The notes: generated from the letters alone by a model not told the origin. A DNA stretch of 64,000 bases from a virus (IMGVR_UViG_3300037484_000317), one strand, 5' to 3'; positions 17,305 to 62,102 are shown, numbered from the stretch's first letter. A program made the numbers and translations.

Positions 17305-17346
17305 TCCTCATTTATGTAACGGACGATAGGTTGTCGATTACACGTT
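17305..17346 (-). promoter_or_regulatory. conserved bipartite promoter motif (minus strand)
   Basis: On the minus strand: CGTGTAAT-N14-CCGTTACAT AAATGAGGAGAG, then ATG of 17264. Confidence 0.55.
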
Positions 17347-17548
17347 AGGCGTTGTCAGGCAGCGTTGGACATCGTTTGCTGGCGCGATGCGTAGCAAGCT
17401 CAGCATCGAGACGTGCAATCGACCGCGTGGCCTGCAACGCATACCATTCGGTTCCTCGCGGAATTGCAAGGCTATCCTTGTCTCCGTGCCTCCACGCCTC
17501 GATCTCTTCAAGGTAAAATTCGCAGATCCCGCACTTGTTGGGACTCAT
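17345..17548 (-). CDS. hypothetical small protein
   Basis: 67-aa ORF containing CGICEFY. Confidence 0.4.
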   Translation of the reverse strand: MSPNKCGICEFYLEEIEAWRHGDKDSLAIPRGTEWYALQATRSIARLDAELATHRASKRCPTLPDNA

Positions 17549-17835
17549 CGGGAGAGACCCTCAGACCTTACGCGTTCTGCACGCAGGACGTTCTGCTCCT
17601 CTTCCTCAGCAGCCAGTAGCAGGGCAACCGCTCGCCGGATGCTATGCTTCCCAGGGGGTGGAACCTTGGGTGGGTACTTGTAGTTGTAGCGAGTCACACA
17701 GCTACGGGCCCACGCCTTCCACTTGCCCCAGGGAGACGTGCCCGTAATGGGGGTGAGGGACGGAAGGCGCTCTATGTTGGGATCCCGCCACGCAGTGACC
17801 GACCCATCCTTGGTGTTTACGACGATGTTATGCAT
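17545..17835 (-). CDS. hypothetical protein, paralog of 43333..43638
   Basis: Internal ATG with GGTGAGG RBS. NTKDGSVTAWRDPN…TGTSPWGKWKAWARS…KYPPKVPPPGKHSIRRAVALL aligns with the 43333 product. Confidence 0.5.
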   Translation of the reverse strand: MHNIVVNTKDGSVTAWRDPNIERLPSLTPITGTSPWGKWKAWARSCVTRYNYKYPPKVPPPGKHSIRRAVALLLAAEEEEQNVLRAERVRSEGLSR

Positions 17836-17842
17836 GGTTGAC

Positions 17843-17883
17843 CTCACCAGGGTAACGGGTGAGCGGTTGCAAATTACACGTTC
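17843..17883 (-). promoter_or_regulatory. conserved bipartite promoter motif (minus strand)
   Basis: On the minus strand: CGTGTAAT-N14-CCGTTACCCTGGTGAGG, then ATG of 17835. Confidence 0.55.
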
Positions 17884-17900
17884 ACCAATCAAGGACGGTG

Positions 17901-18242
17901 CTAGCCTCTTCGGTTCCATGGTGGGAGGTGGGTCTTGTGCGTGCCGCCCCTCTTGGCGACCCACGCAACGAAATTTGCCACCTTCTCGTGGGCGCGTAGC
18001 TTCTCGACCGTGTTGAAGTCGGTGCCAAGCAACTTCTCTGGGATGAATCTGTGGATTGCGTCGTGGCAGTCGGAGCACAGTTGGGCTTTGGTCTGTAGCT
18101 GCTCCCGGGTGAAGTTCCTGGCGAACCACTTGCGTGTGTGCAGCGTGCGGGGGATCAGGTGATGTCCCGTCAGAGGTGCCTCACGAGCACAGAGTTCGCA
18201 GCCTGTCACCGGCAGGAATTCATCATTGTTACCATTCCGCAT
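17901..18242 (-). CDS. HNH nuclease
   Basis: GCELCAREAPLTGHHLIPR…CSDCHDAIH shows the CxxC…HH…CxxC…H HNH architecture. Confidence 0.6.
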   Translation of the reverse strand: MRNGNNDEFLPVTGCELCAREAPLTGHHLIPRTLHTRKWFARNFTREQLQTKAQLCSDCHDAIHRFIPEKLLGTDFNTVEKLRAHEKVANFVAWVAKRGGTHKTHLPPWNRRG

Positions 18243-18415
18243 ATGGCAAAAATCATTAGCATGGCAGGTAGAAAGACTGCCGTGACTACGTTGATTGGAA
18301 ACTTCCACCTGGTTTTAGACAAGGCAGCACGCAACTCCTCATTTTCTTTGCGGAGGGCATCGAGCTGCGCTTCGTAGTTTGCACTTCGATAGGTCACTGA
18401 TCTTGGTCGGGTCAC
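18206..18415 (-). CDS. tail-anchored membrane protein with coiled coil
   Basis: Coiled-coil stretch QLDALRKENEELRAAL followed by C-terminal TM AVFLPAMLMIFAICGMV. Confidence 0.4.
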   Translation of the reverse strand: MTRPRSVTYRSANYEAQLDALRKENEELRAALSKTRWKFPINVVTAVFLPAMLMIFAICGMVTMMNSCR

Positions 18416-18432
18416 TGATCTTGGTCGCCAAG
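18396..18432. repeat. 18-bp perfect tandem duplication (gtcactgatcttggtcg x2) spanning a gene junction
   Basis: Direct reading; it duplicates the codons across the stop/start overlap of 18412..18624 and 18206..18415. Confidence 0.7.
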
Positions 18433-19048: not shown

Positions 19049-19083
19049 TCGCTACCCCACTCCATGCATCCTACGAGGATTGA

Positions 19084-19511: not shown

Positions 19512-19514
19512 GAC

Positions 19515-22753: not shown

Positions 22754-25003
22754 TCATGTGCTTTTCTTTTTGGCCTTTATCTTGGACACGGACAAGGGGG
22801 CCTTGAAGAACTTCTTGGCCTTAGGAAGAAGCGCTTCGTACTCCGTCTTCGTGAGGACTCGGATTGCGGCTCGTTCCTCCCGTTCCTTGAGACCCTTACG
22901 CTTAGCTGGATTAGTCATCCATGGCGTTCCGTAATCGAAAGCCACCTCCACAAGGGTGTCACCCATGTGCGACACCTCTCCGAGCTTGATCACTCTGGCC
23001 ACAGAGTAGAGGGGGATAGCCGTGGTTTTGGCATTGCACGACCAGAAGCAGTTGTGCTCAGGGGGCTGCCCGTTGTCTTCCCACGCGTCGATAGCGTACT
23101 TCTCAGCGTCCTCTTTACTGGCCCATTGCCCTCTTGCCCAGGCGAAGTGCCCATCCTTCAACTTCCGGGAGTCAAACTCGACGGCGTAGGCATCCTCAGG
23201 CACCCATCGCTGGGATGCTGCGTGCGTGCGATGCTTCTCAGTGAAGGTCGGACCGAGATCAAATCTCTCGACCCAGGCTTCCGCCCGACCCTTCTGCTGG
23301 AGCCACCACACGTAGTCGGGATCTGCAAGGTCTGGGTACTTCTTGGCCAGCTCCCGGTACCTCTTCACTGCCAGGAGCATCCGTTCCCGAACGTGCCACA
23401 CTTCCCGAGAGTGCGACCCATCGCGCACGTCCATTCCGAACGAGATCACGGATTCCAGCACACGGAAAGCGAGTTTCGCAAAGGATGGTGCAAGCGTCTT
23501 CGGCTCGAATAGACCACCGTACTCCTTCGAGAATGGATACCAGTGGCACTGGTATCTGAAAGACGGGGGCTCGATGTCCTCCGCTGTGGGGTCTACCTTG
23601 GACAGGGGGAATCCCTTCTCGTGCCAATCGACGCCGCCACCAATGACGCAGAGTGTTGCATCAGCTACCCGCTGCCACGATGTGAGACGCTGCTCTTCAG
23701 TCATCTCCGCCCACGGGGTCGTATCTTCCGTTTCCCGGTCCCGGATGGCCCCGTACAGCGTGGGCCACTGCTTCACCTTGGCTTGCACATAGGCGTGTGC
23801 GTTGACCTCTACGGCTTTCCAGCTCTTCAGGAAATCCCGCACGGGATCTGGCTTTCGCACCCATTCGAAGGTGGCAAACAGGACTTCTTTGCCGGAGGTG
23901 TCGTCGTCTCGCGCGTCGTCATTGTGACGAAAGCGGTAGACGCCAGGCTTCACACTGATGATCTCTGCGAGCCCTCCGCCAACCTCTTTGAGGGAACCAC
24001 CGAACTTCTCCGCTCGGCGATCGAACTCGTCGGAGTCACACAGAGAATACCACCACAGGTCCGTGCAAATGCCTGCTAGGCGCACACCCTCGAACTTAGG
24101 CTTGCGCTTGTAAGGAACGTACTCCTTGCCGTTCCAGTACTCGTCCTGAGGCTCGTTCGCGATCTTGAACTTGCCGTCGGCCAACTTGAACACAGCGGGG
24201 CTGGTATTCCCCACCATGGCGTGAGACATACCGATAGCGGCGTATGCTTGTGAGGTCTGACGACAGCCAATGACGGTGTTGATACTCTCAATCTCGTCGT
24301 CGCCCTCAGGAAGAGGGAACCACCTGCGAAGGTCGTTTGCCACTATGATCTTCCCGCTCGGGACGTTCAACTCCCATTCGTTGAGTTCAAAACCGTTGGG
24401 CAGAGGGCAGTCCTTGCCCGAGAGTCGTACCTTCTTCCCATTTGTCTCCAAACGGAAGCGTTTCTCTCCGCAGTAAGAGCATTCAGTCGAAAGGGTGGCA
24501 ACGGACAAACCGAGATCGACCCATCGGTCCAAAGTCGTTCCAGTGTGCAGTGCGCCTTGTAGGATGTTGAGATCCTCTTCAATGAGGTCTCTTCCCAAAA
24601 GGTGCACGTCCAGGATTCTCTTCTTGAAATCGTCTGGGTCGTACAGGACAGATCCGTTCTTCCAGTGGCCCCTGAGGTCCACTTCGAGCTTGGCTGACCG
24701 GAAGGCCCCTACCACCTTCGAGCGCAACTTGTAGTCGATCGGAGGCCGACCAGCGGTGTCCTTGATGTAGTCCGCAAGGAGGTCCACGGGGGTTGCCGCT
24801 GCGTTATCAAGCACGGTGGGGTGTGCCTGACGCAACTCACCCTCATCGAAGACGCCATTGGTCGTCTCGATTGGGCATAGGCCACCCTTGAGATGAGCTG
24901 CACGAAGGGTAGGCAAATCTCCCAAAGTTCTAAAGGAGAATGCCTTGACCGTGGTGTGCTCCCCGCTCGCGACTATAACAGCTAGATCTCCAGGCTTGAA
25001 CAT
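22754..25003 (-). CDS. large hypothetical protein (749 aa) with Lys-rich C-terminal tail
   Basis: Longest ORF in the window. It is preceded by a copy of the conserved promoter motif at about 25026-25058. Confidence 0.6.
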   Translation of the reverse strand: MFKPGDLAVIVASGEHTTVKAFSFRTLGDLPTLRAAHLKGGLCPIETTNGVFDEGELRQAHPTVLDNAAATPVDLLADYIKDTAGRPPIDYKLRSKVVGAFRSAKLEVDLRGHWKNGSVLYDPDDFKKRILDVHLLGRDLIEEDLNILQGALHTGTTLDRWVDLGLSVATLSTECSYCGEKRFRLETNGKKVRLSGKDCPLPNGFELNEWELNVPSGKIIVANDLRRWFPLPEGDDEIESINTVIGCRQTSQAYAAIGMSHAMVGNTSPAVFKLADGKFKIANEPQDEYWNGKEYVPYKRKPKFEGVRLAGICTDLWWYSLCDSDEFDRRAEKFGGSLKEVGGGLAEIISVKPGVYRFRHNDDARDDDTSGKEVLFATFEWVRKPDPVRDFLKSWKAVEVNAHAYVQAKVKQWPTLYGAIRDRETEDTTPWAEMTEEQRLTSWQRVADATLCVIGGGVDWHEKGFPLSKVDPTAEDIEPPSFRYQCHWYPFSKEYGGLFEPKTLAPSFAKLAFRVLESVISFGMDVRDGSHSREVWHVRERMLLAVKRYRELAKKYPDLADPDYVWWLQQKGRAEAWVERFDLGPTFTEKHRTHAASQRWVPEDAYAVEFDSRKLKDGHFAWARGQWASKEDAEKYAIDAWEDNGQPPEHNCFWSCNAKTTAIPLYSVARVIKLGEVSHMGDTLVEVAFDYGTPWMTNPAKRKGLKEREERAAIRVLTKTEYEALLPKAKKFFKAPLSVSKIKAKKKST

Positions 25004-25025
25004 TCAGGTGTTTCCATTCTTGACC

Positions 25026-25058
25026 ATGTAACGGGTCAGACCTACGGGATTTCACGAT
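25026..25058 (-). promoter_or_regulatory. conserved bipartite promoter motif variant (minus strand) upstream of the 749-aa ORF
   Basis: On the minus strand: CGTGAAAT-N14-CCGTTACATGG, about 25 nt before the ATG of 25003. Confidence 0.45.
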
Positions 25059-25201
25059 CCCTGAGAATGAGGGCTATGATGCGCAACTCAGTTGCACTGT
25101 ATCCTGTCTCTATCCAGACCCGTCCCTTGAGTGATGATGCAAACATACCTCGTAGTGGTTTCGGGAAACGCCCAGTTACTGTTGCAAGTGGGCTTCTGGG
25201 A

Positions 25202-25868: not shown

Positions 25869-26533
25869 GGTGTTCCAGGTGGGTAGGAGGTGTAGCGCTG
25901 GCGGATTGCTTCACGGTCGTGGTCGGTGATTCGCAACCGTGGATAGTCCTGGGGCGAAGGCGCGCGAAGCGCCGGATTCATAATGCTCTGGAGGTCTCCC
26001 ACGTCGTGTGCAAGGCCGAGTACGTGGCCCAGTTGGTGCTCCAGCGCGACCGCGCGTACGGCTAGGATCGGTACATTGCACAGGCTCACGATGGTCAGCC
26101 CTGTCCCCTCGTACTCGCGTGCGTAGGTGCCAGGATTTGGGCGTTCAACCCGATACTCGAATGTAGTGGACCCCCCACACGTTGAGCAGTACCCACGGTC
26201 AGGCTCCTCAAAGGCGTCATCCACAGAGATGAGTACATGGCACTCACGATTTGGATCTACGTGATTCGCAGGTTCCACCTCAAAGGCTACAAATCCTAAC
26301 CGCCTATTGATGCGCGTCGTGATCAAAGACAGAAGAGCATAGTCCTCGTCCGTCCCCTCACCCTGGTTCATGCACGTCAGTAGAGGGAACTTGTGTTGTT
26401 CCCAATGGGGCGCATTCTCCAGGAACCCGACTTCCGTGGGTTCCGGTTGGTTGCTCCGCATTGCGTAATACGCTGCCAGGTACAAAACCACGGACGCTAC
26501 TGCAATGAGTGGAAGTAGTTTGGAGAGTTTCAC
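25865..26533 (-). CDS. membrane-anchored metzincin-like zinc metallopeptidase with HQxxH variant motif
   Basis: N-terminal TM. ALEHQLGHVLGLAHD fits HExxHxxGxxHD with Gln in place of the catalytic Glu, followed by the Met-turn SIMNP. Confidence 0.55.
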   Translation of the reverse strand: MKLSKLLPLIAVASVVLYLAAYYAMRSNQPEPTEVGFLENAPHWEQHKFPLLTCMNQGEGTDEDYALLSLITTRINRRLGFVAFEVEPANHVDPNRECHVLISVDDAFEEPDRGYCSTCGGSTTFEYRVERPNPGTYAREYEGTGLTIVSLCNVPILAVRAVALEHQLGHVLGLAHDVGDLQSIMNPALRAPSPQDYPRLRITDHDREAIRQRYTSYPPGTP

Positions 26534-27873
26534 TCGACCTCAGGCCCGAGTGCTGCACGCACCCTGCTGAGAGCTTCCTTAGCCCCCTTCAGTTCTTGCG
26601 TGGTGTCGAGTAGCGTCTGACGAGACTCCTCAATGATTTCAGAGAGTGACACCCCCATTGTGCGAACAGGGAGATTCACGGTCTGCCAGGCCGCGTCTAA
26701 CTCTTGATTGGCTTGGACCAACTCCTGACGGGCCTTGACCAACTCTTGATTGATGTCACACAGTCTTTCAACGGATCCCATTGCCCGACGTGCAGTCCAT
26801 GTCAGTGGCTCTCCGTTCTGTGGCTTGAGAATTTCAGCCAGTGCATCGATGGTATCCTGTGCGTTCTCGGGCGCACTACAAATACGATCGGCCACACGTA
26901 GGCGCAAAATAGCTTCCACAGCTCGGTCTGTGGTGGCATCGAACGTCTCGACAAGTGCTTCAACGCCAGAGGCGACGACGAGCTTGCTCCACAGATAAGA
27001 GACTGGATCCTTCGGAACCTGATTCAGGTTCATGTTGTTTTGCTTCTGGATCTTGTTAGACCAGTCAGACCTATCGAGTTCTTCCCGTAGGAAACTCACA
27101 GTTGTACGGGATCTTGTTTCAAGATCCGTGAGTGCCTCCCGGAGCCTCTTTATCTCATTCCGGTAGTAGACTGCTTCGGATGAGAATGTGTCTCTCTCCT
27201 GAATCAGACGTTCAACCAGATTGCACACCGAAAGAGTCGGATCCCCCTGTACGTCCTCGCATCGTGGTAATCGAAGTTCAGCGGAGTCCGTCTTCAGTGA
27301 CCTTGCGATTTCCTCAAACTCCCGTACGGTCGGTGCGGAACCAGCTTCGATATCGCCCAAACGTTCCGGTGAAATGGCGGAGAGGGTCGCCACCGAGTTT
27401 ATCTCCAGGCCGAGATCAGTACGACGCTTGCGAATGTTGTAGGCGATGTTCACGCCCGGGGTACTCCAAGACTGCTCTGTCTTGGCCCATTCGCGCAGGG
27501 AGTCCCTCTCGTCAGGGGTGAGGGCGGTCGGGTTCGGCATGGACCATCCCTCTGGCATAACCCACTCCCTGCCACTGTTCTTCGAAGCTCTCGAAGCTGG
27601 ATCGTCCACGAGAGTCTCTGCAACCGTGAGGGAGTACCCCATATTCCTCCGGCAGTGCCCCCTGTAATCCGTCTGATTCAGCCAGTTGTGACCCCACTCC
27701 TGAGCTTCGTTGAAGGTGTCGAATCTCTCAGGGAAGGATCCCCCACCATTCCCGTTCCTGTAGCAAACGTGGAACACCTTTCGCATGTGATTGGCCTGAT
27801 TTGTCATTGCGTCCCTTACGCTTTGCGCACAGAGGACCGACCCCAATGACCAACGTCTCCAATCCTGGACCAC
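26530..27873 (-). CDS. hypothetical protein with XRE-like HTH segment and C-terminal coiled coils
   Basis: LEINSVATLSAISPERLGDIEAGSAPTVREFEEIARSL is HTH-like; the C-terminus is coiled-coil-rich. Confidence 0.5.
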   Translation of the reverse strand: MVQDWRRWSLGSVLCAQSVRDAMTNQANHMRKVFHVCYRNGNGGGSFPERFDTFNEAQEWGHNWLNQTDYRGHCRRNMGYSLTVAETLVDDPASRASKNSGREWVMPEGWSMPNPTALTPDERDSLREWAKTEQSWSTPGVNIAYNIRKRRTDLGLEINSVATLSAISPERLGDIEAGSAPTVREFEEIARSLKTDSAELRLPRCEDVQGDPTLSVCNLVERLIQERDTFSSEAVYYRNEIKRLREALTDLETRSRTTVSFLREELDRSDWSNKIQKQNNMNLNQVPKDPVSYLWSKLVVASGVEALVETFDATTDRAVEAILRLRVADRICSAPENAQDTIDALAEILKPQNGEPLTWTARRAMGSVERLCDINQELVKARQELVQANQELDAAWQTVNLPVRTMGVSLSEIIEESRQTLLDTTQELKGAKEALSRVRAALGPEVE

Positions 27874-28036: not shown

Positions 28037-28078
28037 CTCCTTACCTGGGTAACGACTGAGAACCAGTGGATTACACGG
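28037..28078 (-). promoter_or_regulatory. conserved bipartite promoter motif (minus strand)
   Basis: On the minus strand: CGTGTAAT-N15-CGTTACCCAGGTAAGGAG, then ATG of 28028. Confidence 0.55.
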
Positions 28079-28637
28079 ATGAGAGCTTCTTGGCGGCAGG
28101 TTGCGGGGAATCCACAAGAGCCCGAGTGGACCAGTAGACGATGGATTCCGCGAACTGCTGTGCCGTGAAATCCCCACGGGTTCCTCCTTCGAGCACAAGG
28201 AAATTGCGAGCCATGGTCATGGGATCCATGGGCTCCTCCTCCACGGACTCCCGAGCGTTGATGGACACGATCTCGAAATCGCAGTCCGTCGTTGCCTCAT
28301 TCCCTTCCACCAGAACCGCATGGGAGTAGAGCACCACAAAGGCGTACTTGGCCTGTGTCTTCTTGCCTTGGGCTCGGACGCTCAGGTAGGGGGCTTCCGG
28401 TTCCCTACGAGCCCCAAAGACCGCCCTGAGGGGCGTCTCCAGGTTCACCTGCACAGTGCTGGAGCGGAACCTCTCAGGTGGGACAGGGACCAGCAGGACA
28501 CCTGGCTTGTAGCCCTGCTTTCCCTCATGGAAACAGAGGCAGACCAGCTGAATCAGTTCGTCCTCTGTGCCCTCGAAGTGAGAGTACGGGGACTCCGGTG
28601 TCTGTCGACGAACGAAGTCATTGAGTGCGATAGTCAT
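28071..28637 (-). CDS. hypothetical protein
   Basis: 188-aa ORF. Confidence 0.5.
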   Translation of the reverse strand: MTIALNDFVRRQTPESPYSHFEGTEDELIQLVCLCFHEGKQGYKPGVLLVPVPPERFRSSTVQVNLETPLRAVFGARREPEAPYLSVRAQGKKTQAKYAFVVLYSHAVLVEGNEATTDCDFEIVSINARESVEEEPMDPMTMARNFLVLEGGTRGDFTAQQFAESIVYWSTRALVDSPQPAAKKLSSV

Positions 28638-29761: not shown

Positions 29762-29789
29762 TGTGTTGTGTCCTTTTGGTTGGTCATCT

Positions 29790-29832
29790 TCCCTACGCCC
29801 TGGTAACGAACGGGCTGGAAGATTTACACGAT
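29790..29832 (-). promoter_or_regulatory. conserved bipartite promoter motif (minus strand) for the pilin-like gene
   Basis: On the minus strand: CGTGTAAA-N14-CGTTACC, then AGGGCGTAGGGAAG, then ATG. Confidence 0.55.
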
Positions 29833-29853
29833 CCGGACGAAAGATTCTCCGAA

Positions 29854-29896
29854 ACGTGTAAGGAGAGGAAGGTCGACCGTTGCCAGGGCGAGGAAG
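29854..29896 (+). promoter_or_regulatory. conserved bipartite promoter motif (plus strand), divergent partner
   Basis: CGTGTAAG-N14-CCGTTGCC AGGGCGAGGAAG precedes the ATG at 29908. Confidence 0.55.
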
Positions 29897-33032: not shown

Positions 33033-33058
33033 CTTTACACTTCAAAGGCGTAAGAGAA

Positions 33059-33106
33059 TCGTGTAAAAGTTCTTCTCCGCCCCGTTACTAAGAAGAGAGA
33101 GGTGGC
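33059..33106 (+). promoter_or_regulatory. conserved bipartite promoter motif upstream of ligA
   Basis: CGTGTAAA-N14-CCGTTAC, then AAGAAGAGAGAGGTGG RBS. Confidence 0.55.
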
Positions 33107-43063: not shown

Positions 43064-43285
43064 ATGGCACTGACCCAACGAGAGAAAAACCTTCGACCTG
43101 TCATCCAGAGGCATGCTGGTACGTTGAACTGGGAAGTGTCACGCGTCGAGTGCCGTGGATGCAGCTATGGTCGTGGACGCACAAGAGAGGCAGCTCTAGT
43201 GGCGTGGTGTGCAGATGTGAACAGGCGTAGGGAAATGGGCGAAGAGGTAGCGCCCATCCCAGAGATGCCCAACCGGGCAAACTGA
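43064..43285 (+). CDS. hypothetical small protein
   Basis: 73-aa ORF. Confidence 0.4.
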   Translation: MALTQREKNLRPVIQRHAGTLNWEVSRVECRGCSYGRGRTREAALVAWCADVNRRREMGEEVAPIPEMPNRAN

Positions 43286-43286
43286 T

Positions 43287-43328
43287 CATGTAAATGTTGG
43301 ATCCCCATCCGTTACATGGGTGAGGATC
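43287..43328 (+). promoter_or_regulatory. conserved bipartite promoter motif upstream of the 43333 paralog
   Basis: CATGTAAAT-N13-CCGTTACATGGGTGAGGA, then ATG. Confidence 0.5.
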
Positions 43329-50452: not shown

Positions 50453-50464
50453 CCTGGGATCAAA

Positions 50465-50508
50465 TCGTGTAATCCTCCGACCCCCATCCGTTAGTGGGGT
50501 GAGGACAT
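50465..50508 (+). promoter_or_regulatory. conserved bipartite promoter motif
   Basis: CGTGTAAT-N14-CCGTTAG TGGGGTGAGGA, then ATG at 50513. Confidence 0.55.
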
Positions 50509-51930: not shown

Positions 51931-52188
51931 ATGCCTGACAAGAACAAACTCAAGGTGCTGGCGGAGCAGGGTGTGCGGATCGTACCGACGTGCGGAACGT
52001 GTACGCACGGGAAGTTCTTCGGACGGCCGTGGGGAGAGTGCTCTCTTCGAACGTACCAACATGAAAAGCACACCGGGCTACGGCAAATGCCAGCCCATCT
52101 GTCGTTCACCTGTCCCAGTTATGGGTCCGGGTCTGCGAATCTCCAAGAGCTGGGTGAGTACGCCACCCTGATTCCTACGAAAGACTGA
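51931..52188 (+). CDS. small Cys-containing protein
   Basis: CGTCTHG…C…CPSYG. Confidence 0.4.
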   Translation: MPDKNKLKVLAEQGVRIVPTCGTCTHGKFFGRPWGECSLRTYQHEKHTGLRQMPAHLSFTCPSYGSGSANLQELGEYATLIPTKD

Positions 52189-52213
52189 ACTACGAAAATC
52201 GTCGTTCTGGTAC
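52186..52213 (+). promoter_or_regulatory. sigma70-like promoter (TTGACA-N16-TATGTT) upstream of the methyltransferase gene
   Basis: cTTGACAcctgaaccttctggtaTATGTTacc; this is a different class from the CGTGTAA/CCGTTAC motif. Confidence 0.45.
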
Positions 52214-52870: not shown

Positions 52871-54040
52871 ATGGCACTCTCAGAAATCAGCTCGTCAAAC
52901 GTCCCCGTCAAGATCTGGTCGCCCCTCAAGGACGTCGAGTCGGCAGCGTTGACGCAGCTTCGTAATACGGCCTCTCTTCCGTGGGTCGCACACCACGTAG
53001 CGGTTATGCCCGATGTCCATTTCGGAATCGGAGCGACGGTAGGAAGCGTTGTCGCCATGCGCGGGGCTGTTTCCCCGGCTTGCGTGGGTGTCGACATTGG
53101 CTGCGGAATGGCTGCAATCCGCACCAGTCTCCGCTCGCATGACCTTCCTCACTCCCTGCTTGCACTGCGCACGGACATCGAGACCGCAGTGCCTGTCGCA
53201 CACAACGGGCACAGCAAGGGAATGAGCCCTTATGCCCGCAAGAGTGAGCTGTGGGCAGAGTTCAAGGACTTGCACCCCAAGGTTCAGGACTTGCTCTCCA
53301 AGGCGCAGATTCAGCTTGGCACTCTGGGGGGTGGCAATCACTTCATCGAGATTTGCATTGATACTGAGAAGCGCGTGTGGGTGATGCTGCACTCGGGCTC
53401 GCGGAACATCGGCAAGTCCTTGGCTGAGATCCACATCGCGGTGGCCAAGAAGCTTGAGCACAACCAACCCCTGGTGGACCGAGACCTTGCGGTGTTTCTT
53501 GCGGGCACAAAGGAGATGCAGGACTATCGGCGAGATCTGTACTTCGCACAACGCTACGCGGCTGAGAACCGACAGGTGATGATCTCGCTGGTCAAGGACG
53601 TGATGGTCAAGCACTTCCCGCAGGTCACCTACGACCCGGTGATTGCGTGCCATCATAACTACGTCTCTGAAGAGACGCACTTTGGAGACGATCTGTTCGT
53701 GACTCGCAAGGGTGCCATCTCGGCCCGCAAGGGTGAGCTTGGGATCATTCCTGGCAGCATGGGCACCAAGTCCTACATCGTGAGTGGGCTTGGTTGTGAA
53801 GAGAGCTTCTGCTCGGCTTCGCATGGTGCTGGGCGCCGCATGTCACGAGGTGACGCAAAGCGGCGCTTCACACGAGATGACCTCGAAGAGCAGACGGCTG
53901 GTGTCGAGTGCCGCAAGGACGGGGGCGTGATCGACGAAATCCCAGCTTGTTACAAAGATATCGATCAGGTCATGGCGAATCAAGGCGATCTCGTGGCGAT
54001 CGTACACGAACTGAAACAAGTCCTGTGCGTTAAGGGATGA
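52871..54040 (+). CDS. rtcB: RtcB RNA ligase (short bacterial-type, 389 aa)
   Basis: GGGNHFIEICID and C-terminal SHGAGRRMSR. Confidence 0.8.
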   Translation: MALSEISSSNVPVKIWSPLKDVESAALTQLRNTASLPWVAHHVAVMPDVHFGIGATVGSVVAMRGAVSPACVGVDIGCGMAAIRTSLRSHDLPHSLLALRTDIETAVPVAHNGHSKGMSPYARKSELWAEFKDLHPKVQDLLSKAQIQLGTLGGGNHFIEICIDTEKRVWVMLHSGSRNIGKSLAEIHIAVAKKLEHNQPLVDRDLAVFLAGTKEMQDYRRDLYFAQRYAAENRQVMISLVKDVMVKHFPQVTYDPVIACHHNYVSEETHFGDDLFVTRKGAISARKGELGIIPGSMGTKSYIVSGLGCEESFCSASHGAGRRMSRGDAKRRFTRDDLEEQTAGVECRKDGGVIDEIPACYKDIDQVMANQGDLVAIVHELKQVLCVKG

Positions 54041-55122
54041 AGATGGATCAGACTACAGCAGTCGAGCGTTTGCGGAAGGCAAAACGTCCTGAAGACATCT
54101 TCGGGACGCTTGCGGAAGGCCCACTTCCGACGCGCTTGCACGCACTGAAGCACCGCTTCGATAGTCTTCTACTGCATGTGCATCCGGACCGTAATCCTGA
54201 CTTGCCGGATGCGGGACTACACATCACTCGCCTTATGGCTCTCCGAAAGGAAGCAGAGAACCTGTTGCAGACGGGGGCTTACGGCAAGGTGCGCAAGGCC
54301 GTGGTCGAAGCCGTGCTCAAATCTCGTACGGGCGTGTACAAGGTGCACAAGGAATATCGGGTGGGGGAGGTTGCAGACTTGTTCCTCGGCGAGACGGACA
54401 AGGGGCAGAAGTGCCTGTTGAAGGTGGTTCGGCACCCGAGTGAAAACGACCTACTTGATTTCGAAGCACGGACACTTGCGGAGCTGCACAAGCAGACTGG
54501 GGACAAGGCGAAGACCTTCCAGAAGTACCTTCCGAAGCTTCTCGACAGCTTTCCGCTAATCGAGGGGGGTAAACACCGGAGGGTGAATGTCTTGGACGTG
54601 GCTGAGGACTACGTCTCTCTCGCGGAGATTCACGCCGCATACCCTGACGGCATTGACCCCCGTGATGCGGCCTGGATGATTCGACGAGTCTTCGAGGTGC
54701 TCGGCTGGATTCACGAACTGGGGTACGTCCACGGTGCGGTGCTTCCAGAGCATGTGCTGGTTCACCCGACAGGACACGGAGCACGCCTAGTGGGCTGGTC
54801 CTATGCGGTCAAGACAGGACAACGGCTCTTGGCAGTCAGTGCTCTTCGCAAGGACATGTACCCGCCGTCTGTCATGAGCCGTAAGCCCGCCACACCAGTG
54901 CTTGACGTCCAGCTCGTTCGTGAGTGCGCAACTATCTTGCTGTCCGACAAGAACGGTTTGCTGCGGGCCGATGTACCGAAGGCACTCTCGGCTTTCCTGA
55001 CCAAGTGTAAGAGTGGAAAAGTCCTGGACGGTTGGGATGCCTACCGTGAGTACAACGAAGTTCTGAAGAAGTGTTATGGCAAGCGGGAGTATCGCGCGTT
55101 TGCGATGCCGACGAGTGTCTGA
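54037..55122 (+). CDS. J-domain (DnaJ-like) protein fused to a degenerate protein-kinase-like domain (pseudokinase)
   Basis: J-domain EDIFGTL…LKHRFDSLLLHVHPDRNPD…LHITRLMALRKEAENLL with the HPD motif. The kinase fold is QKCLLKVV (VAIK-like), …FEARTLAELH (alphaC), IHELGYVHGAVLPEHVLV (HRDLKPEN with D to A and K to V), and HGARLVGWSYAV (DFG replaced by VGW). Confidence 0.55.
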   Translation: MKMDQTTAVERLRKAKRPEDIFGTLAEGPLPTRLHALKHRFDSLLLHVHPDRNPDLPDAGLHITRLMALRKEAENLLQTGAYGKVRKAVVEAVLKSRTGVYKVHKEYRVGEVADLFLGETDKGQKCLLKVVRHPSENDLLDFEARTLAELHKQTGDKAKTFQKYLPKLLDSFPLIEGGKHRRVNVLDVAEDYVSLAEIHAAYPDGIDPRDAAWMIRRVFEVLGWIHELGYVHGAVLPEHVLVHPTGHGARLVGWSYAVKTGQRLLAVSALRKDMYPPSVMSRKPATPVLDVQLVRECATILLSDKNGLLRADVPKALSAFLTKCKSGKVLDGWDAYREYNEVLKKCYGKREYRAFAMPTSV

Positions 55123-55136
55123 GAAGGAGAGTCAAA

Positions 55137-56108
55137 ATGGGATATTCAAGCTGGTCGGGCGACGCATACGATCACATCAGCAGGCCACGTGCGAAGATGG
55201 ACTACGGCACTGCGAGGGCAACAGTCTTCTCGTCTCGACTCAAGTCGAGTCTCGACCCGAAGGGTGTGAAGGTTCGAGAGTCGCGAGACAGCGCCGACCA
55301 TCCGGAGAGCAACGCGATCGGCGTGCTGTTCGATGTGACGGGCAGCATGGGGCAGACGCCGTATGAGTTCGCCCAGAAGAAGTTGGGTGGCCTGATGAAG
55401 ATGCTCGTCGACAAGGGTGTGATCGGCCACCCCCAGGTACTCTTCGGCGCGATCGGCGACTCCTACTCGGACACAACGCCGTTCCAGGTCGGGCAGTTCG
55501 AGTCGGGCGTCGAGATGGACACATGTCTCACGGACATCTTCATCGAGGGCGGCGGCGGTGGCCAAAACAAGGAGAGCTACGGGCTGGGGCACTACTTCTT
55601 CGCACGTCACACGTCGATCGACTGCTCTGAGAAGCGTGGAAAGAAGGGCTACCTCTTCACGGTCGGTGACGAGCTGGTCTGGCCGACAATCACGGCCGCC
55701 GAAGCCGAGCGGGTCTTCGGGGACACGATCGAAGATACAACGGTGGCTGACCTCATCCATGAGTGTGAGAGCCGCTACAACGTGTTCCACATCGTCGTGG
55801 GGACGTCCACCGGTAATCGGCCTGAGATCCTCGCAGGATGGAAGGCGCTGCTCGGCGAGCGTGCACTCAAGCTCGATGACCCGGACAACATCTGCGAGCT
55901 GATTGCAGCGACCATAGGCCTCTGCGAGGGGCACAGCCTCGATGTGGTGAATGGCGTTCTGCGGGACTCCGGAGCCAGCGCAGGCGCCGTGAAGTCGGTT
56001 GGGGCTGCCATCGTTCCGCTGCGGGACTCCCTGGCGCGTTCGGCCGTTGGTTCGATCCTCGGGAACCTCCCAGCAAGCGCTGCACCCAGCGGCACCATCC
56101 GCCTCTGA
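55137..56108 (+). CDS. von Willebrand factor A (vWA) domain protein with MIDAS
   Basis: VLFDVTGSMG (DxTGS MIDAS) plus downstream T and D residues; a GAAGGAGAG RBS precedes the internal ATG. Confidence 0.6.
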   Translation: MGYSSWSGDAYDHISRPRAKMDYGTARATVFSSRLKSSLDPKGVKVRESRDSADHPESNAIGVLFDVTGSMGQTPYEFAQKKLGGLMKMLVDKGVIGHPQVLFGAIGDSYSDTTPFQVGQFESGVEMDTCLTDIFIEGGGGGQNKESYGLGHYFFARHTSIDCSEKRGKKGYLFTVGDELVWPTITAAEAERVFGDTIEDTTVADLIHECESRYNVFHIVVGTSTGNRPEILAGWKALLGERALKLDDPDNICELIAATIGLCEGHSLDVVNGVLRDSGASAGAVKSVGAAIVPLRDSLARSAVGSILGNLPASAAPSGTIRL

Positions 56109-56111: not shown

Positions 56112-57374
56112 ATGTCCACCCACATCGTCACTGATCTGGGTTTTGGTGACGGTGGGAAGGGCACCATAGTCGATGCGGATGCGCGTCGCTGTTCGAGTCC
56201 ACCACTTGTGGTGAGGTACAACGGCGGCGCGCAAGCTGGACACAACGTGCATACAGCGGACGGGCGGCACCATACATTCTCACAGTTTGGGGCCGCCACG
56301 TTTGTACCGGGCTCTAGGACGTTGCTTTCGAAGCACTTCATCCTGCACCCGGGTGGGCTCATGGTTGAGAACGAGCACCTTGTCTCGCTTGGCGTTACTG
56401 ACGCCCTCAAGCGTCTCAGTATCGACGCACGAGCGCTGGTCATCACGCCGTATCATCAAGCCGCCAACCGTCTACGGGAAGCTGCTCGTGGTTCGGCTCG
56501 GCATGGCACTTGTGGTTTAGGGATTGGGGAAACGGTCGCCGATTCACTAGAGCACAGGGACGAAGCTTTGCGTGTGGCAGATCTTCTGGACCCCGCAACC
56601 CTTCGGCGAAAACTTTCCTCCGCGTGTGAGAGGATGCACCAGCAGATGCCATTGCCGTGGTCCGTGCGAGCGAACTTTGAGCTATGGCGTACGGCAGATC
56701 TGCTTACGAAGATCGGAAAGTTTCTTCATGTCATCTCCGCAAGTGATGCAGATTCTCAAATCAGAGAGTCAGAGCATGTGATTTTCGAGGGGGCACAGGG
56801 CGTGCTCCTCGATGAGTGGCTTGGGTTCCATCCGCACACAACGTGGAGCACCACGACCACGGCAAACGCTGACGCCATGATTGCGGAGACTGGCCGCACC
56901 GGGCCCGTAGAGCGAATCGGCGTCGTTCGTGCGTACGCAACCCGCCATGGTCAGGGCCCGTTCCCCACGGAGGATGCAGCACTCACAGAGCAGCTCCGCG
57001 ATACCCACAACACGGACACTGGACCTCAGGGCAGCTTCCGTGTCGGTTGGTTTGATGTGCCCCTCACCAAGTACGCATTGAGTGCGTGCCCTGGGATCAC
57101 GTCTCTCGCTGTGACGTGTCTCGATCGTCTTGCAAATGTTCCCGAGTGGTCTGTATGCGAGGCGTACGAAGGGGGAGATCGTCTAGTAGTGAACCACGGG
57201 CATGACCTCGCGTACCAGGAGCAACTGACGCACTACCTCATGGGGTGCACGCCCGTGCTGCGGGGGGTACCCAGTGATGTCCAAGGGTACGTGCGCGAGA
57301 TCGAGCAGTGTACAGGTCTGCCGGTCTCTGTCATTTCGCTGGGCCCCACAGCAGAAGACAAGCGCTGGATTTAG
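56112..57374 (+). CDS. adenylosuccinate synthetase family protein (PurA-like; candidate PurZ)
   Basis: P-loop GDGGKGTIVD (canonical GDEGKGK), VVRYNGGAQAGHNV, TCGLGIGET, FEGAQGVLLD, AYATRHGQGPFPTE, and SLGPTAEDK are collinear with PurA along the whole length. Confidence 0.75.
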   Translation: MSTHIVTDLGFGDGGKGTIVDADARRCSSPPLVVRYNGGAQAGHNVHTADGRHHTFSQFGAATFVPGSRTLLSKHFILHPGGLMVENEHLVSLGVTDALKRLSIDARALVITPYHQAANRLREAARGSARHGTCGLGIGETVADSLEHRDEALRVADLLDPATLRRKLSSACERMHQQMPLPWSVRANFELWRTADLLTKIGKFLHVISASDADSQIRESEHVIFEGAQGVLLDEWLGFHPHTTWSTTTTANADAMIAETGRTGPVERIGVVRAYATRHGQGPFPTEDAALTEQLRDTHNTDTGPQGSFRVGWFDVPLTKYALSACPGITSLAVTCLDRLANVPEWSVCEAYEGGDRLVVNHGHDLAYQEQLTHYLMGCTPVLRGVPSDVQGYVREIEQCTGLPVSVISLGPTAEDKRWI

Positions 57375-59093: not shown

Positions 59094-59427
59094 GTTCCTT
59101 AAACGTTGGGCGGTTCCCGTGAAGCACAAAGAATTCACAGGTGAGTTCTTTTGTCCGTGCGGTTGCGGGCTGGTGTGCAGAGAAGTGCGCTGCGTCCACT
59201 GCGACAAGGTTATGCCTCCCGGGGAGTCCGACTACTACATGGTCCTTCATCCCATTTGGAGTAAGGCCACACATGGCAAAGAGCGTGACGGTCAAATGCA
59301 CTGGGATTGTCTAACTATCCGACTTGCAGGCTTAGGGCACACGCTCACTTTCGCAGATCTGATGGCTCTCCCGATGAACGAAGCCTTCAAGCGCGAAAAG
59401 CTAGAACATCACCCTACGATCATGTAA
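59080..59427 (+). CDS. Cys-rich hypothetical protein
   Basis: FFCPCGCGLVCREVRCVHCD. Confidence 0.4.
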   Translation: MPNSEFLKRWAVPVKHKEFTGEFFCPCGCGLVCREVRCVHCDKVMPPGESDYYMVLHPIWSKATHGKERDGQMHWDCLTIRLAGLGHTLTFADLMALPMNEAFKREKLEHHPTIM

Positions 59428-59462
59428 TCGATCCGACCTCGCCCGTTACCAAGGTGGAGAGC
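59420..59462 (+). promoter_or_regulatory. conserved bipartite promoter motif
   Basis: CATGTAAT-N14-CCGTTACC AAGGTGGAGAG, then ATG at 59466. Confidence 0.55.
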
Positions 59463-59465: not shown

Positions 59466-59798
59466 ATGAAAAAAGAACTCTGGAAACGAGAACCAGCGAA
59501 GTGGTCAGATACGGAGCTGATCGGAGAACTGACGAGTCGCTACGCGCCAACTCAGGTCCCTCCTTGTCGTGTCTGTGGTGGTGAACTATCCATTCAAGCG
59601 GTCGGTGGCGGGCTGCCGACAAAGTGGGCATGCTCTGGGTATGGGGAGGATGGCATCCATCTACCTGACCGCAGCCTGGCCGACCAGCACTACAGAGACT
59701 CGCAGTTCGAAGACCGCCGTCAGGGTGGCGACGGGGCAGTGATAGAAGCTCTAAGTCGCTGGGCAGCAGTGGCCAAGACAGCGACCAAGAAGAAGTAA
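59466..59798 (+). CDS. hypothetical protein
   Basis: 110-aa ORF. Confidence 0.5.
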   Translation: MKKELWKREPAKWSDTELIGELTSRYAPTQVPPCRVCGGELSIQAVGGGLPTKWACSGYGEDGIHLPDRSLADQHYRDSQFEDRRQGGDGAVIEALSRWAAVAKTATKKK

Positions 59799-60025
59799 TG
59801 CGTACACGATTTCAGGTCTGTGATAGTGACTCTCTTCGGGAAACAGCGGGAACGCGAGCTGACGCATTCCGTATCGCCTGCGATATCGCAGAGCGTGACC
59901 AAATCCCTGTCACTGTTCACGATCGAATGGCCCACCTGGGGTGTCCCCAAGAGTGGGTGATTCATCCTGGAACAGGGTTCAAGAACTTCCTGTGGCTACC
60001 CCCAACAAAGACCCGAACAGCATGA
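59798..60025 (+). CDS. hypothetical small protein
   Basis: 75-aa ORF. Confidence 0.4.
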   Translation: MRTRFQVCDSDSLRETAGTRADAFRIACDIAERDQIPVTVHDRMAHLGCPQEWVIHPGTGFKNFLWLPPTKTRTA

Positions 60026-60507
60026 AACTGACGAAGAAAACGTGGGACTCCGTGCGTGGAACACCGCAGGCAAAAGCTCTGCGGGATGCGGCTGTTCTCT
60101 GGGCTGGTGCATACACCGGATCTGAAGCCGGATTTGCAGCAATCGACCAGCAACTCATCGAGGCAGCCCTATCACTTGCCGCCGACCGTTCCCGCTTCTC
60201 TCGCGGCTACGAGGCTGCTGTGCAGGATGCTATCGAGATTGTCGAAGACAACCCGTATACGTCAGCACCCTGTGGGCGTCGCATCGCAGAACAGCTCTTC
60301 TACCGCACGAGGCGTGCGTCAGGATCCGACTTCGCACGTATGGAGGATGCCCTCTGGGGTCTTCTGCAATCTGTGTTGTCGGTTGGGAATAGACCCAAGC
60401 CTCTTGAACAGGCGATCAAGGTTGCTGGAGATCTTGTGACTGGGATCGAGAAACGTCGGTTGCGTAAGAAGTACACTGGTCCGAAGCGAGATCGCCGTGG
60501 AACCTGA
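60022..60507 (+). CDS. hypothetical protein
   Basis: Internal ATG. Confidence 0.45.
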   Translation: MKLTKKTWDSVRGTPQAKALRDAAVLWAGAYTGSEAGFAAIDQQLIEAALSLAADRSRFSRGYEAAVQDAIEIVEDNPYTSAPCGRRIAEQLFYRTRRASGSDFARMEDALWGLLQSVLSVGNRPKPLEQAIKVAGDLVTGIEKRRLRKKYTGPKRDRRGT

Positions 60508-60829
60508 AACAATCTATTTCCTCATGGTGGAATCCAAAAACATCATGCTGGGCACTAAGAGCTGGGACTCTCTGTGCTATCTCCCAGACGCTCAGTCAGC
60601 TGATGACCTTCTCTCAAAGGTCAATGATTTCCATGTCGCCTACTGGAAGACGTATCAAGCCAAAGTCCGTGACTTGAGTGGGAGAACTCCCAGTCGAGAC
60701 ACCTCGGAGCCCATGGCATTCCTTGTTGCACTCAGTAGAGAGCTAGGCACCTCACCGCGACAGATTCAAGGTCCGGCCTTCATCACAGGATTTCAGGTAA
60801 TCCCTGTACCACTAGCGCACAAGGCGTAA
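60497..60829 (+). CDS. hypothetical protein
   Basis: 110-aa ORF. Confidence 0.45.
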   Translation: MEPETIYFLMVESKNIMLGTKSWDSLCYLPDAQSADDLLSKVNDFHVAYWKTYQAKVRDLSGRTPSRDTSEPMAFLVALSRELGTSPRQIQGPAFITGFQVIPVPLAHKA

Positions 60830-60837
60830 GGGACAGG

Positions 60838-62058
60838 ATGAAATTCTCGATCAGTAGGAAGAGCCTTTTGCAGGGTCTGGATTGTATTCGCACCACGGCT
60901 GCTAAGAAGAGCACAATTCCAATCCTGAACGGTGTCTGTCTCAAGGCAGAGGGAAGTGGCGTATGCTTCTCCGCAACAGACTGCACTGTGTTCATTCGGA
61001 CTCAGATCGCAGCGACGGTTGCACTGGAGGGCTCCGTTGTGGTGAATGCCCGAGATCTCTACGACATTGCGAAGGTGTTACCAGACGGACCTGTGACCTT
61101 CGAAGTGAGCGAGCACCTTGTACTGGAAGTGACTTGTGGGAGAATTAGCCACAAGTTGCAGGGCCATTCGAGCGAGGACTTTCCGGTGTTCCCTGAACGT
61201 GTGGATGCGGGGTGTGTGAAGATTGATGTGGGGATGGTCAAGGAGTTGATTGACTGCACCCAGTACGCAATCTCGAATGGGAATTGGAACAGCCCGGGTA
61301 CCTGTGGGGCTTCCTTTGAGTGTGATGGTGGCACTCTTCGTATGATCGCTACAGACGGCCTGCGCCTCAGCAAGGCGGAGATCAAGATGGATGGGGTTGT
61401 GTCCGACTTCAAGATGCTCGTGCCGTCCAAGGGCATCCAAGAGCTGCTGGGGCTCGTTGAAGGGGTTCAGGTCAGTCGTAAAAAGGGAGATCATCGAGGC
61501 GCGGCCCGATGGCAACCTCTGGTGGTTGAAGTGAGTCAAGAGCGTGGGACAGCGTTCTTTTACAGCTCTGGGATACAACTCTCGGTACGGCTTATCGAAG
61601 CTACATTTCCTTCGTACGAGTACGTCATCCCCAAGAAGGATGAGATCGTTGTACTTGCCTCGCGGATTGTTCTGCTAGAGGCATTGAAGAGGATCTCTCA
61701 TGGTAAGTGGGGTAGCGTTCGGCTTGAGTTCCTTCCAGGGAAGTGGAACAGAGACAGCTCTGAATATCTTTCAGGGAGTCTGAAGATCTTCAGTGCCGAT
61801 CCTAATGTGGGTGAAAGATCCGAGGAGGTCACCGTGGATTACACGGGGGACCCCATCACTATCGGGTTCGAAGCGATGTACCTGCTCGATGTGCTCGGAG
61901 CCCTGCATTCCGATGAGATTTCGCTAGGATTTTCTGTGACCAAGGGGACATCGAACACAATCAATCTGATGACTATCCGACCTGTACAAGAGTACAGTTA
62001 CATCGATTTCGTGGGTTTGGTCATGTCATTGCGGGCAAAACCAGACGGGACCTTTTGA
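60838..62058 (+). CDS. dnaN: DNA polymerase III beta sliding clamp
   Basis: The N-terminus MKFSISRKSLLQGLDCIRTTAAKKSTIPILNGVCLKAEGSGVCFSATDCTVFIR is collinear with DnaN, and the three-domain length fits. Confidence 0.7.
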   Translation: MKFSISRKSLLQGLDCIRTTAAKKSTIPILNGVCLKAEGSGVCFSATDCTVFIRTQIAATVALEGSVVVNARDLYDIAKVLPDGPVTFEVSEHLVLEVTCGRISHKLQGHSSEDFPVFPERVDAGCVKIDVGMVKELIDCTQYAISNGNWNSPGTCGASFECDGGTLRMIATDGLRLSKAEIKMDGVVSDFKMLVPSKGIQELLGLVEGVQVSRKKGDHRGAARWQPLVVEVSQERGTAFFYSSGIQLSVRLIEATFPSYEYVIPKKDEIVVLASRIVLLEALKRISHGKWGSVRLEFLPGKWNRDSSEYLSGSLKIFSADPNVGERSEEVTVDYTGDPITIGFEAMYLLDVLGALHSDEISLGFSVTKGTSNTINLMTIRPVQEYSYIDFVGLVMSLRAKPDGTF

Positions 62059-62059
62059 A

Positions 62060-62102
62060 TCGTGTAAGGAGAGGGCACCTGTCCGTTACCAGGGTGAGGA
62101 CC
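62060..62102 (+). promoter_or_regulatory. conserved bipartite promoter motif
   Basis: CGTGTAAG-N14-CCGTTACC AGGGTGAGGA, then ATG at 62106. Confidence 0.55.

Follow-up and report, generated by a model that had tools for sequence, protein, structure and literature searches.

A two-box, promoter-like motif conserved at gene junctions of an uncultivated large-phage lineage, with a sigma-32-family factor as candidate reader

The stretch IMGVR_UViG_3300037484_000317 (64,000 nt, here called the window, meaning the whole of the DNA that was analysed) has a G+C content of 55.9% and represents the part of a large phage genome concerned with replication and metabolism. A gene map based on codon usage places the genes on the plus strand to approximately 10.3 kb, on the minus strand to 29.8 kb, and then again on the plus strand. 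Matches to Pfam and PHROGs identify genes for a DnaB-like helicase, homing endonucleases, PTH2, an NAD-ligase, two RtcB proteins, SpoU, a PurA-like protein, DnaN, NUDIX and phosphatases, together with many unknowns. No tRNA was found in the window, and it has no near match among 50,697 phage records. The subject of this report is a motif of two short boxes, CGTGTAA (box 1) and CCGTTAC (box 2), which lies upstream of genes on both strands. The initial annotation of the window had listed it at 11 sites; all of these exist, with coordinates within 1-2 nt of those given. They are set out below, each labelled by the first base (C) of box 1.

17306..17347, minus strand: site 17344, promoter-like; box 1 CGTGTAA at 17338-17344, box 2 CCGTTAC at 17316-17322, 0 mismatches.
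17842..17883, minus strand: site 17880; box 1 at 17874-17880, box 2 at 17852-17858, then GGTGAGG; ATG at 17835.
25018..25059, minus strand: site 25056; variant box 1 CGTGAAA at 25050-25056, box 2 at 25028-25034, without the GGTGAGG block.
28039..28080, minus strand: site 28077; box 1 at 28071-28077, box 2 TCGTTAC at 28049-28055; ATG at 28028.
29793..29833, minus strand: site 29830, left arm of a divergent pair; box 1 at 29824-29830, 14-nt spacer, box 2 TCGTTAC at 29803-29809.
29852..29893, plus strand: site 29855; box 1 at 29855-29861, variant box 2 CCGTTGC at 29877-29883; ATG at 29908.
33057..33098, plus strand: site 33060; box 1 at 33060-33066, box 2 at 33082-33088; upstream of the NAD-dependent ligase gene, TTG at 33118.
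43284..43325, plus strand: site 43287; variant box 1 CATGTAA at 43287-43293, box 2 at 43309-43315, then GGTGAGG; ATG at 43333 (paralogue gene).
50463..50504, plus strand: site 50466; box 1 at 50466-50472, variant box 2 CCGTTAG at 50488-50494, then GGTGAGG; ATG at 50513.
59418..59459, plus strand: site 59421; variant box 1 CATGTAA at 59421-59427, box 2 at 59443-59449; ATG at 59466, with DnaN encoded downstream.
62058..62099, plus strand: site 62061; box 1 at 62061-62067, box 2 at 62083-62089, then GGTGAGG; ATG at 62106.

In the 64 kb, CGTGTAA occurs 11 times and CCGTTAC 10 times, against 3.6 expected for each. The joint pattern CGTGTAA-N15-CCGTTAC with up to two mismatches has 11 matches, compared with 0.12 expected; the null was 100 dinucleotide shuffles, and the highest count in any of them was 2. 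Ten of the matches are sites of the initial annotation, each with 0-1 mismatch. The fixed register between the boxes that had been claimed thus stands for 10 of the 11 sites, while site 29830, with its 14-nt spacer, is picked up once a difference of +/-1 in spacing is permitted. With a weight matrix allowing this flexibility, the 11 sites score 22.9-31.3 bits and everything else in the 128 kb of both strands scores below 12 bits, shuffled sequence reaching 11.5 bits on average. The eleventh match to the joint pattern, at 24107-24135 on the plus strand (CTTGTAA-N15-CCGTTCC, two mismatches), lies antisense inside the gene for a 749-aa protein and has no GGTGAGG after it. It is probably due to chance, or possibly an antisense promoter.

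All 11 sites are at gene junctions and in the same orientation as the downstream gene, which bears out the coding-strand placement described previously. Seven of them occupy six gaps of at least 50 nt, and the other four fit into junctions of less than 50 nt. The divergent pair 29830(-)/29855(+) stands back to back exactly at the strand switch. At two sites the preceding gene ends with the TAA of box 1 as its stop codon (28071-28073, minus strand; 59425-59427, plus strand), which shows extreme packing of the putative promoters between genes. The motif search gave no site in the leftmost 17 kb, a part of the window that has several genes for homing endonucleases (NUMOD3, GIY-YIG; PHROG matches), at 6742-7581 and 9263-10249. 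Intrinsic-terminator-like hairpins are not enriched in the window.

The statement that the motif lies immediately upstream of a start codon is correct for 8-9 sites. It does not hold for site 17344, where the predicted start point near 17309 would give a leader of approximately 45 nt to the ATG at 17264, or for site 29830, and site 33060 uses the TTG at 33118. The ATG at 29787 beside site 29830 is out of frame and opens a 9-codon open reading frame (ORF) only; the true first gene is 29636-29761 (minus strand, ATG at 29761), encoding a 41-aa peptide (MNKRNAGYTSIELM...) with a prepilin-type N-terminus.

As to the genes that follow, site 17344 heads a leftward operon containing a PcfJ-like gene (15773-17050). 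Site 17880 precedes the gene at 17545-17835, which is a paralogue of that at 43333-43638; the products are 45% identical (E=5e-21), and each gene has a motif site of its own, in agreement with the initial annotation. Downstream of site 25056 are the 749-aa protein gene (ATG at 25003) and a DUF4419 gene, and downstream of site 28077 an XRE-type helix-turn-helix (HTH) protein of the HTH_3 family (26530-27873, 447 aa). Site 29855, the right arm of the divergent pair, heads the rightward block. A further block, containing the SpoU, RtcB, J-domain kinase, vWA-like and PurA-like genes, is headed by site 50466, and site 62061 sits directly after the dnaN stop codon (62058).

The architecture aAtCGTGTAAt-N14-yCCGTTAC-N3-GGTGAGG extends beyond this single window, to more than 57 unique sites. 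Its carriers are IMGVR_UViG_3300037484_000235 (252,521 bp) and IMGVR_UViG_3300037484_000502 (63,912 bp), referred to below as _000235 and _000502, approximately 16 metagenome contigs, and MFGX01000114. The sites known in _000235 all lie between 5 and 120 kb. In IMG/VR, a search with the motif alone retrieved _000235 and _000502, which come from one metagenome, and otherwise single chance hits without the flanking elements; a 14-base pattern gave mostly noise among the matches listed. A 19-base version matched 18 metagenome contigs, approximately 16 of which are true members, many with 2-6 sites in a few kilobases. Among 185,579 bacterial and archaeal species genomes, a 17-base version gave 24 scattered chance matches and one true member contig, with no exact match in Myxococcota; the query for a host regulon was AATCGTGTAA-N15-CCGTTAC. 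This absence from Myxococcota and other genomes counts against an ordinary regulon of the host with this consensus, but does not exclude a host factor as the reader. Literature string searches for the two boxes returned primers and unrelated sequences only.

The member contig from the species genomes, MFGX01000114.1 (L182), is 7.9 kb long, has three motif sites and is filed in a 'Candidatus Fraserbacteria' metagenome-assembled genome (MAG) from Rifle sediment. It is almost certainly a mis-binned phage fragment of the lineage that carries the motif.

Identity between proteins of the window and those of the relatives is approximately 30% for _000502 and 37-66% for SESE01003716. The consensus of 57 unique sites is gAAtCGTGTAATc...CyCacCCGTTACtagGGTGAGGa. 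Averaged over pairs of sites, identity is 0.96 in box 1, 0.89 in box 2 and 0.69 in the GGTGAGG block, and 0.27-0.31 in the spacer and flanks. The same pattern is seen upstream of three orthologous genes (the paralogue-family gene, ligA and the gene for the prepilin-like peptide), where the boxes match at 7/7 and 6-7/7 positions and the spacers at 5-8 of 14-15. Thus, at the orthologous ligA site (L167:1104) both boxes are kept at 7/7 with 6/15 of the spacer matching, the boxes of site 17880 are kept at L153:3557, and the 41-aa peptide is conserved in _000235 (L004 4226-4339), downstream of a motif at L004:4392. Divergent pairs also recur in the relatives (L018 5371/5401, L314 3592/3610 and L164 3265/3316). 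Conservation of the boxes while the spacers diverge, together with recurrence of divergent pairs, suggests the phylogenetic footprint of a functional, strand-specific signal. The two-box motif is real, statistically overwhelming and evolutionarily conserved, and most likely serves as promoter for a single gene class of this jumbo-phage lineage.

Some sites in the relatives have no ORF start within approximately 45 nt (L020:434, L148:1135, L162:5922 and L167:841). These may belong to long leaders or to small non-coding RNAs, and the first three indicate that the motif is not tied to translation starts.

The geometry of the motif, two conserved boxes (0.96 and 0.89) flanking a spacer that is not conserved (0.29 over the 57 sites), is that of the -35 and -10 elements of sigma70-family promoters. 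In hexamer form it is GTGTAA-N16-CGTTAC at 10 of the 11 window sites and has N15 in one, a flexibility of 1 nt; N15 is likewise rare among all sites, and both distances fall within the 15-19 bp that separate the hexamers of such promoters. As was noted in the initial annotation, neither box resembles the housekeeping sigma70/sigmaA elements TTGACA and TATAAT. Matches to TTGACA-N16-18-TATAAT are below shuffle expectation in the window (4 vs 7.6; 4 vs 7.1). The separate sigma70-like element, TTGACA-N16-TATGTT, that had been reported upstream of SpoU at 52186-52213 is in fact at 52214-52241; it falls on the earliest possible start codon (TTG) of the SpoU ORF and is of a kind found 4 times vs 7.6 in shuffled sequence, and it is discounted here.

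Position +35, 7 nt past the end of CGTTAC, is G in 52 of the 57 sites and a purine in all of them, and position +34 is a pyrimidine in 56/57 (T in 52). A pyrimidine at -1 and a purine at +1 is the usual start preference of bacterial RNA polymerase, and in sigma70-family promoters the start point lies 6-8 nt past the -10 element. GGTGAGG is fixed 3 nt after box 2, the distance to the ATG floats, and the first ATG is mostly 15-24 nt past box 2 in the 57 sites; this is what would be expected if transcription began at +35. GGTGAG is the ribosome-binding site at genes that lack the motif as well (39206, 39662 and 21335), and is therefore the local Shine-Dalgarno sequence, fused at the motif sites to the predicted start point. 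The GGTGAGGA block is thus probably more than a ribosome-binding site, being in register with box 2 and containing the putative start.

From these patterns we infer that transcription is initiated at the sites. Box 1 (aAtCGTGTAAt) would act as a -35-like element and box 2 (yCCGTTAC) as a -10-like one; bacterial core RNA polymerase carrying an alternative sigma factor of the sigma70 family would recognize the two on double-stranded DNA. The start would lie approximately 7 nt past box 2, at the invariant purine that follows the invariant pyrimidine, so that mRNAs would begin GAGG(A), their leader being only 9-18 nt in length and opening with the Shine-Dalgarno sequence. The sites could then be promoters both at the start of operons and inside them, in packed arrays of genes for replication, nucleotide metabolism and RNA repair. 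The phage-specific promoter class, marking transcription units, that the initial annotation had put forward is accordingly supported in silico, by placement, divergent pairs, conservation of the boxes, sigma-type geometry and absence from other genomes. On these grounds the sites are very probably promoters and, if so, there is good reason to expect a reader of the sigma70 family. That they represent a sigma-type promoter class specific to this uncultivated large-phage lineage is, on balance, the reading we favour.

A candidate for the reader is encoded in one relative. The sigma gene of _000502 (L009 7097-8032, minus strand) is 2.5 kb downstream of a motif site and in the same orientation, and its 312-aa product has regions 1.2, 2, 3 and 4. 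The best family is RpoH (sigma-32), at 212 bits, which is below the 323-bit equivalog cut-off. It is 55-59% identical to chromosomal sigma-32 proteins of Myxococcota MAGs and Sandaracinus, in bacterial contexts of approximately 72% G+C, and has no close homologue among cultured phages. At the positions of Escherichia coli L253, E265 and R268 it has F, Q and E, and T128 is replaced by G; these four are among the differing columns that are invariant in its 99 closest bacterial homologues. Alanine at L253, E265 or R268 of sigma-32 lowers -35 binding or activity in a study of the open complex, in which the -35 element is CTTGAA (PMC10216364). A sigma-32 whose -35 contacts are altered would fit a -35 box with two departures from CTTGAA. 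Against the published consensus CTTGAAA-N11/16-CCCCAT (PMC545781), CGTGTAA matches CTTGAAA at 5/7 positions and yCCGTT matches CCCCAT at 4/6, and the N14 spacing is shared, although the CAT core is absent from box 2. Natural variants of box 1 match CTTGAAA at 6/7 (CGTGAAA) and 5/7 (CATGAAA). The leading candidate reader would therefore be a sigma-32-family factor, either phage-encoded as in _000502 or a host paralogue. Should a sigma factor be the reader, the balance tips slightly towards the sigma-32 family; the entire chain, from promoter through sigma70-family reader to sigma-32-family factor, is tentative and falls somewhat short of an even chance. The reader could also be another alternative sigma, or an unrecognized phage protein.

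Several observations weigh against this reading. No sigma or RNA polymerase gene was found in the window by Pfam on ORFs of at least 60 aa, PHROGs, tblastn with the relative's sigma, and a sigma-32 hidden Markov model (HMM) on six-frame ORFs; the search for such a gene that had been suggested therefore drew a blank in the window itself and led to the sigma-32-like gene of _000502. Neither did Pfam and HMM searches detect a sigma in approximately 68 kb of _000235 (252 kb in all) or in the small contigs from metagenomes, and when IMG/VR was scanned by alignment for genes resembling sigma-32, the 80 other viral sigmas retrieved included none of _000235. Only one relative is known to have the sigma, while the motif is family-wide, and 59% identity to bacterial RpoH gives it the look of a later, lineage-restricted capture. 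The Myxococcota host assignment depends solely on the same gene. The likeness of the -10 element to CCCCAT is partial, and the chance of matching some known sigma consensus equally well is estimated at a few per cent to 10%. Finally, with a start at +35 the conserved GG at +32/+33 would be untranscribed and needs another explanation, for example a discriminator. Two other searches were also negative: a single-protein scan for a sigma in _000235 recovered the query itself only, and a homologue search with sigma region 4 alone gave no match.

Of the other readings, recognition by a group 4 sigma factor of the extracytoplasmic function (ECF) type, from host or phage, survives best, and is unlikely. 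Box 2 has CGT followed by T, as do many ECF -10 elements, and TGTAA in box 1 resembles the -35 element of Bacillus subtilis sigma-X, TGTAAC. Hosts of the Myxococcota type are rich in ECF sigmas, one of which is near rpoH in L149. In addition, -35 recognition by sigma-32 resembles that by sigma-24 (PMC10216364), which makes it difficult to tell the sigma-32 and ECF classes apart from sequence. The AAC that is the hallmark of ECF promoters is missing, however, the two As being followed by C in 0/57 sites (T in 35, A in 16 and G in 6), and TGTAAT-N15-CGTT is 1-2 nt short of the usual ECF spacing of N16-17, even though CGT itself is found in 56-57 of 57 sites. Neither the window nor the examined sequence of the relatives yielded a Sigma70_r4_2 or ECF protein, and the absence of the exact motif from the bacterial genomes searched also counts against an ECF regulon.

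A promoter for a phage-encoded RNA polymerase, single-subunit or non-canonical multisubunit, with its genes outside the window, is rather improbable. Many jumbo phages encode their own polymerases (PMC7824862), the relatives include one of jumbo size (252 kb), inspection covered part of each genome, and the G-rich initiating region recalls promoters of the T7 type. The anatomy speaks for sigma2/sigma4 recognition, and not for contiguous T7-like promoters or the single short elements recognized by phiKZ/AR9-type polymerases, with two short boxes, 15 unconserved bases between them and a flexibility of 1 nt. No polymerase domain was found in the 64-kb window, 68 kb of _000235, 20 kb of _000502 or the small contigs, and the window proteins have no D.D.D or DxDGD-type polymerase motif; an N4-like hairpin is unsupported by folding tests. 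Among the readers that the initial annotation had considered, an alternative sigma is thus favoured, and a phage RNA polymerase less so.

The motif might instead act at the RNA level, as a 5' untranslated region (5'-UTR) element in longer transcripts, either a translational operator or a processing site, in which a protein binds both boxes and the spacer can mask the ribosome-binding site. This reading, which takes up the operator alternative of the initial annotation, is very unlikely. It would account for the fixed register between ribosome-binding site and boxes. At site 43287 a perfect 10-bp inverted repeat (43295-43304/43324-43333, TGTTGGATCC/GGATCCAACA) pairs the spacer with the ribosome-binding site and start codon, and the spacer is also complementary to the Shine-Dalgarno region at 17880, 50466, L165 and L160:259; an inverted repeat comparable to that of site 43287 is found at few sites only. 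Over the 57 sites, the spacer and downstream region lose a little stability when the spacer is shuffled (mean z -0.54, t -2.4), but the effect is small (approximately 1.3 kcal/mol) and limited to a subset. Pairing between spacer and ribosome-binding site differs little between cognate and non-cognate combinations (-9.1 vs -8.4 kcal/mol, p=0.05). No general structure emerges: a hairpin around box 1 has z -0.2 and the whole element z -0.39 (57 sites), hairpins picked by eye have inconsistent registers, and there is no Rfam family match. Action on RNA also leaves unexplained the sites without nearby ORFs, the back-to-back divergent pairs and the pyrimidine/purine pair. Local occlusion of the ribosome-binding site may be added at a subset of sites, and is not the common principle.

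It is similarly hard to see the boxes as the operator of a phage transcription factor placed over an unrecognized core promoter. The factor could be the HTH_3 protein or, as a sub-case, one that appropriates sigma in the manner of T4 MotA, where an activator box is combined with a host -10 element. The XRE-type HTH protein, the only reader-like protein of the window in these searches, is encoded directly downstream of site 28077, and box 1 is near -30 to -35, the position of the MotA box in T4. Yet the boxes form no palindrome or direct repeat and keep a strict orientation, box 2 is unlike a housekeeping -10 element, sigma70-type elements are not enriched, and the HTH protein has no detectable homologue in the motif-carrying fragments of the relatives. 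A MotA-type activator, an N4-type hairpin and a T7-type contiguous promoter were set aside on anatomy.

Returning to promoters read by a sigma factor, the most specific form of this idea is that a sigma-32 was captured from a Myxococcota-like host, re-specified (L253F, E265Q, R268E), and now reads aAtCGTGTAAt-N14-yCCGTTAC for a replication and RNA-repair class across a jumbo-phage lineage. This is doubtful at present; if true, no earlier class of phage promoters would be known to depend on a domesticated heat-shock sigma. The clean consensus, together with a sigma-32-derived factor with changed contacts, offers a testable case of sigma rewiring after viral capture, and possibly an orthogonal sigma/promoter pair for synthetic biology. 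If the promoter reading is correct, the motif provides a transcription map (operon starts, leaders and a regulated gene class) for large phages known only from sediment and aquifer metagenomes. With the 30-nt signature, members of the lineage can also be picked out of raw metagenomes in cases where searches by protein similarity fail, and approximately 20 contigs were found.

Co-occurring phages with other sigma factors have other promoters. Those with RpoD-like sigmas (L324, L329 and L330) have dense CTTGACA-N14-GTGCTAnnnT promoters and none of the CGTGTAA motif, and the window has none of the CTTGACA-N14-GTGCTAnnnT promoters. The type of promoter thus appears to track the type of sigma. The LigA protein of co-occurring phages is 81% identical to that of the window in L327/L328, 73% in L326 and approximately 50% in L324/L329/L330; the contigs have TTGACA-N13-14-(T)GTGCTA promoters, and three encode RpoD-like sigmas beside a Gp80-like gene. 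The ligA gene was rejected as a marker of the lineage, as contigs with LigA 73-81% identical are without the motif and use sigma70-type promoters. The contigs closest in LigA are outside the motif lineage, and ligA therefore appears to have been exchanged among co-occurring phages.

Some further genes deserve mention. The window has an RNA-repair and translation set, consisting of two RtcB genes (45228-46751 and 52871-54040), a SpoU methylase (52214-52867) and a PTH2 peptidyl-tRNA hydrolase (7505-8020), and the relative _000235 encodes a Ro60/TROVE protein (L082 2284-3948). The RNA-repair set suggests that the lineage counters host tRNA or RNA damage. The PurA-like adenylosuccinate synthetase (56112-57374), with the N-terminus GFGDGGKGT, is 41% identical to the product of a 'PurA-like' gene of cluster-C mycobacteriophages, and tblastn also matches phages of Vibrio, Acinetobacter and Salmonella. 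The product of 54037-55122 has an N-terminal J-domain-like HPD segment and a kinase-like body, and is followed by a vWA-like protein (55071-56108). This J-domain kinase/vWA pair is kept in _000502 (L148 9097-10464), where Pfam finds DnaJ (8e-9) and Pkinase (1e-30); the copy in the window has a weak Pfam DnaJ match (E=0.035). The phage J-domain protein Rki of RB43 stabilizes sigma-32 (PMC3486835). By analogy, the J-domain kinase could possibly act on the DnaK-sigma-32 control circuit, a link to the sigma-32 hypothesis that is circumstantial.

Among known systems, sigma-32 promoters (CTTGAAA-N13-15-CCCCATnT) are comparable in having two boxes at the same spacing (N14 here), and a sigma-32-family gene is present in one relative. 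They differ in that G and T here replace T and A at -35 positions 2 and 5, and in that the -10 core is CGTTAC and not CCCCAT. The genes that follow the sites are also not the chaperones of a sigma-32 regulon, being phage replication and RNA-repair operons, and the relative's sigma is non-canonical at three positions of -35 contact. ECF promoters, such as those of sigma-E, sigma-W and sigma-X, have the form xxAAC-N16-17-CGTx. The motif resembles these in being a short, highly conserved bipartite element with CGT in the downstream box and very low tolerance of mismatches; unlike them, it is without AAC and its spacer is 1-2 nt shorter.

That phages have promoter classes of their own for alternative sigmas is well established, and the kind of mechanism proposed here is not new; examples are the middle/late classes that depend on the phage-encoded factors SPO1 gp28 and gp33/34, T4 gp55 and phiEco32 gp36. 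A non-host consensus before phage operons, and the logic of redirecting the host core polymerase, would be shared with these. The consensus of the motif differs from all of them, and the candidate sigma belongs to the RpoH family and is documented in one relative. To our knowledge, no RpoH-family sigma has been described as a promoter-specificity factor of a phage. Capture of sigma genes of cellular origin has been reported in large phages ('group 2' jumbo phages) (PMC7824862). The co-occurring phages with CTTGACA-N14-GTGCTAnnnT promoters provide a close parallel, as large environmental phages with dense, repeated promoters at gene junctions and with LigA up to 81% identical; their promoters differ in having a canonical -35 element and an extended -10 element.

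T7-like promoters consist of approximately 20 contiguous conserved bases, from -17 to +6, read by a cognate polymerase. The extreme conservation between copies and the conserved G-rich initiating region recall the promoters of T7 and N4. These are contiguous or form a hairpin, whereas the boxes described here are split by 15 unconserved bases and a hairpin is unsupported.

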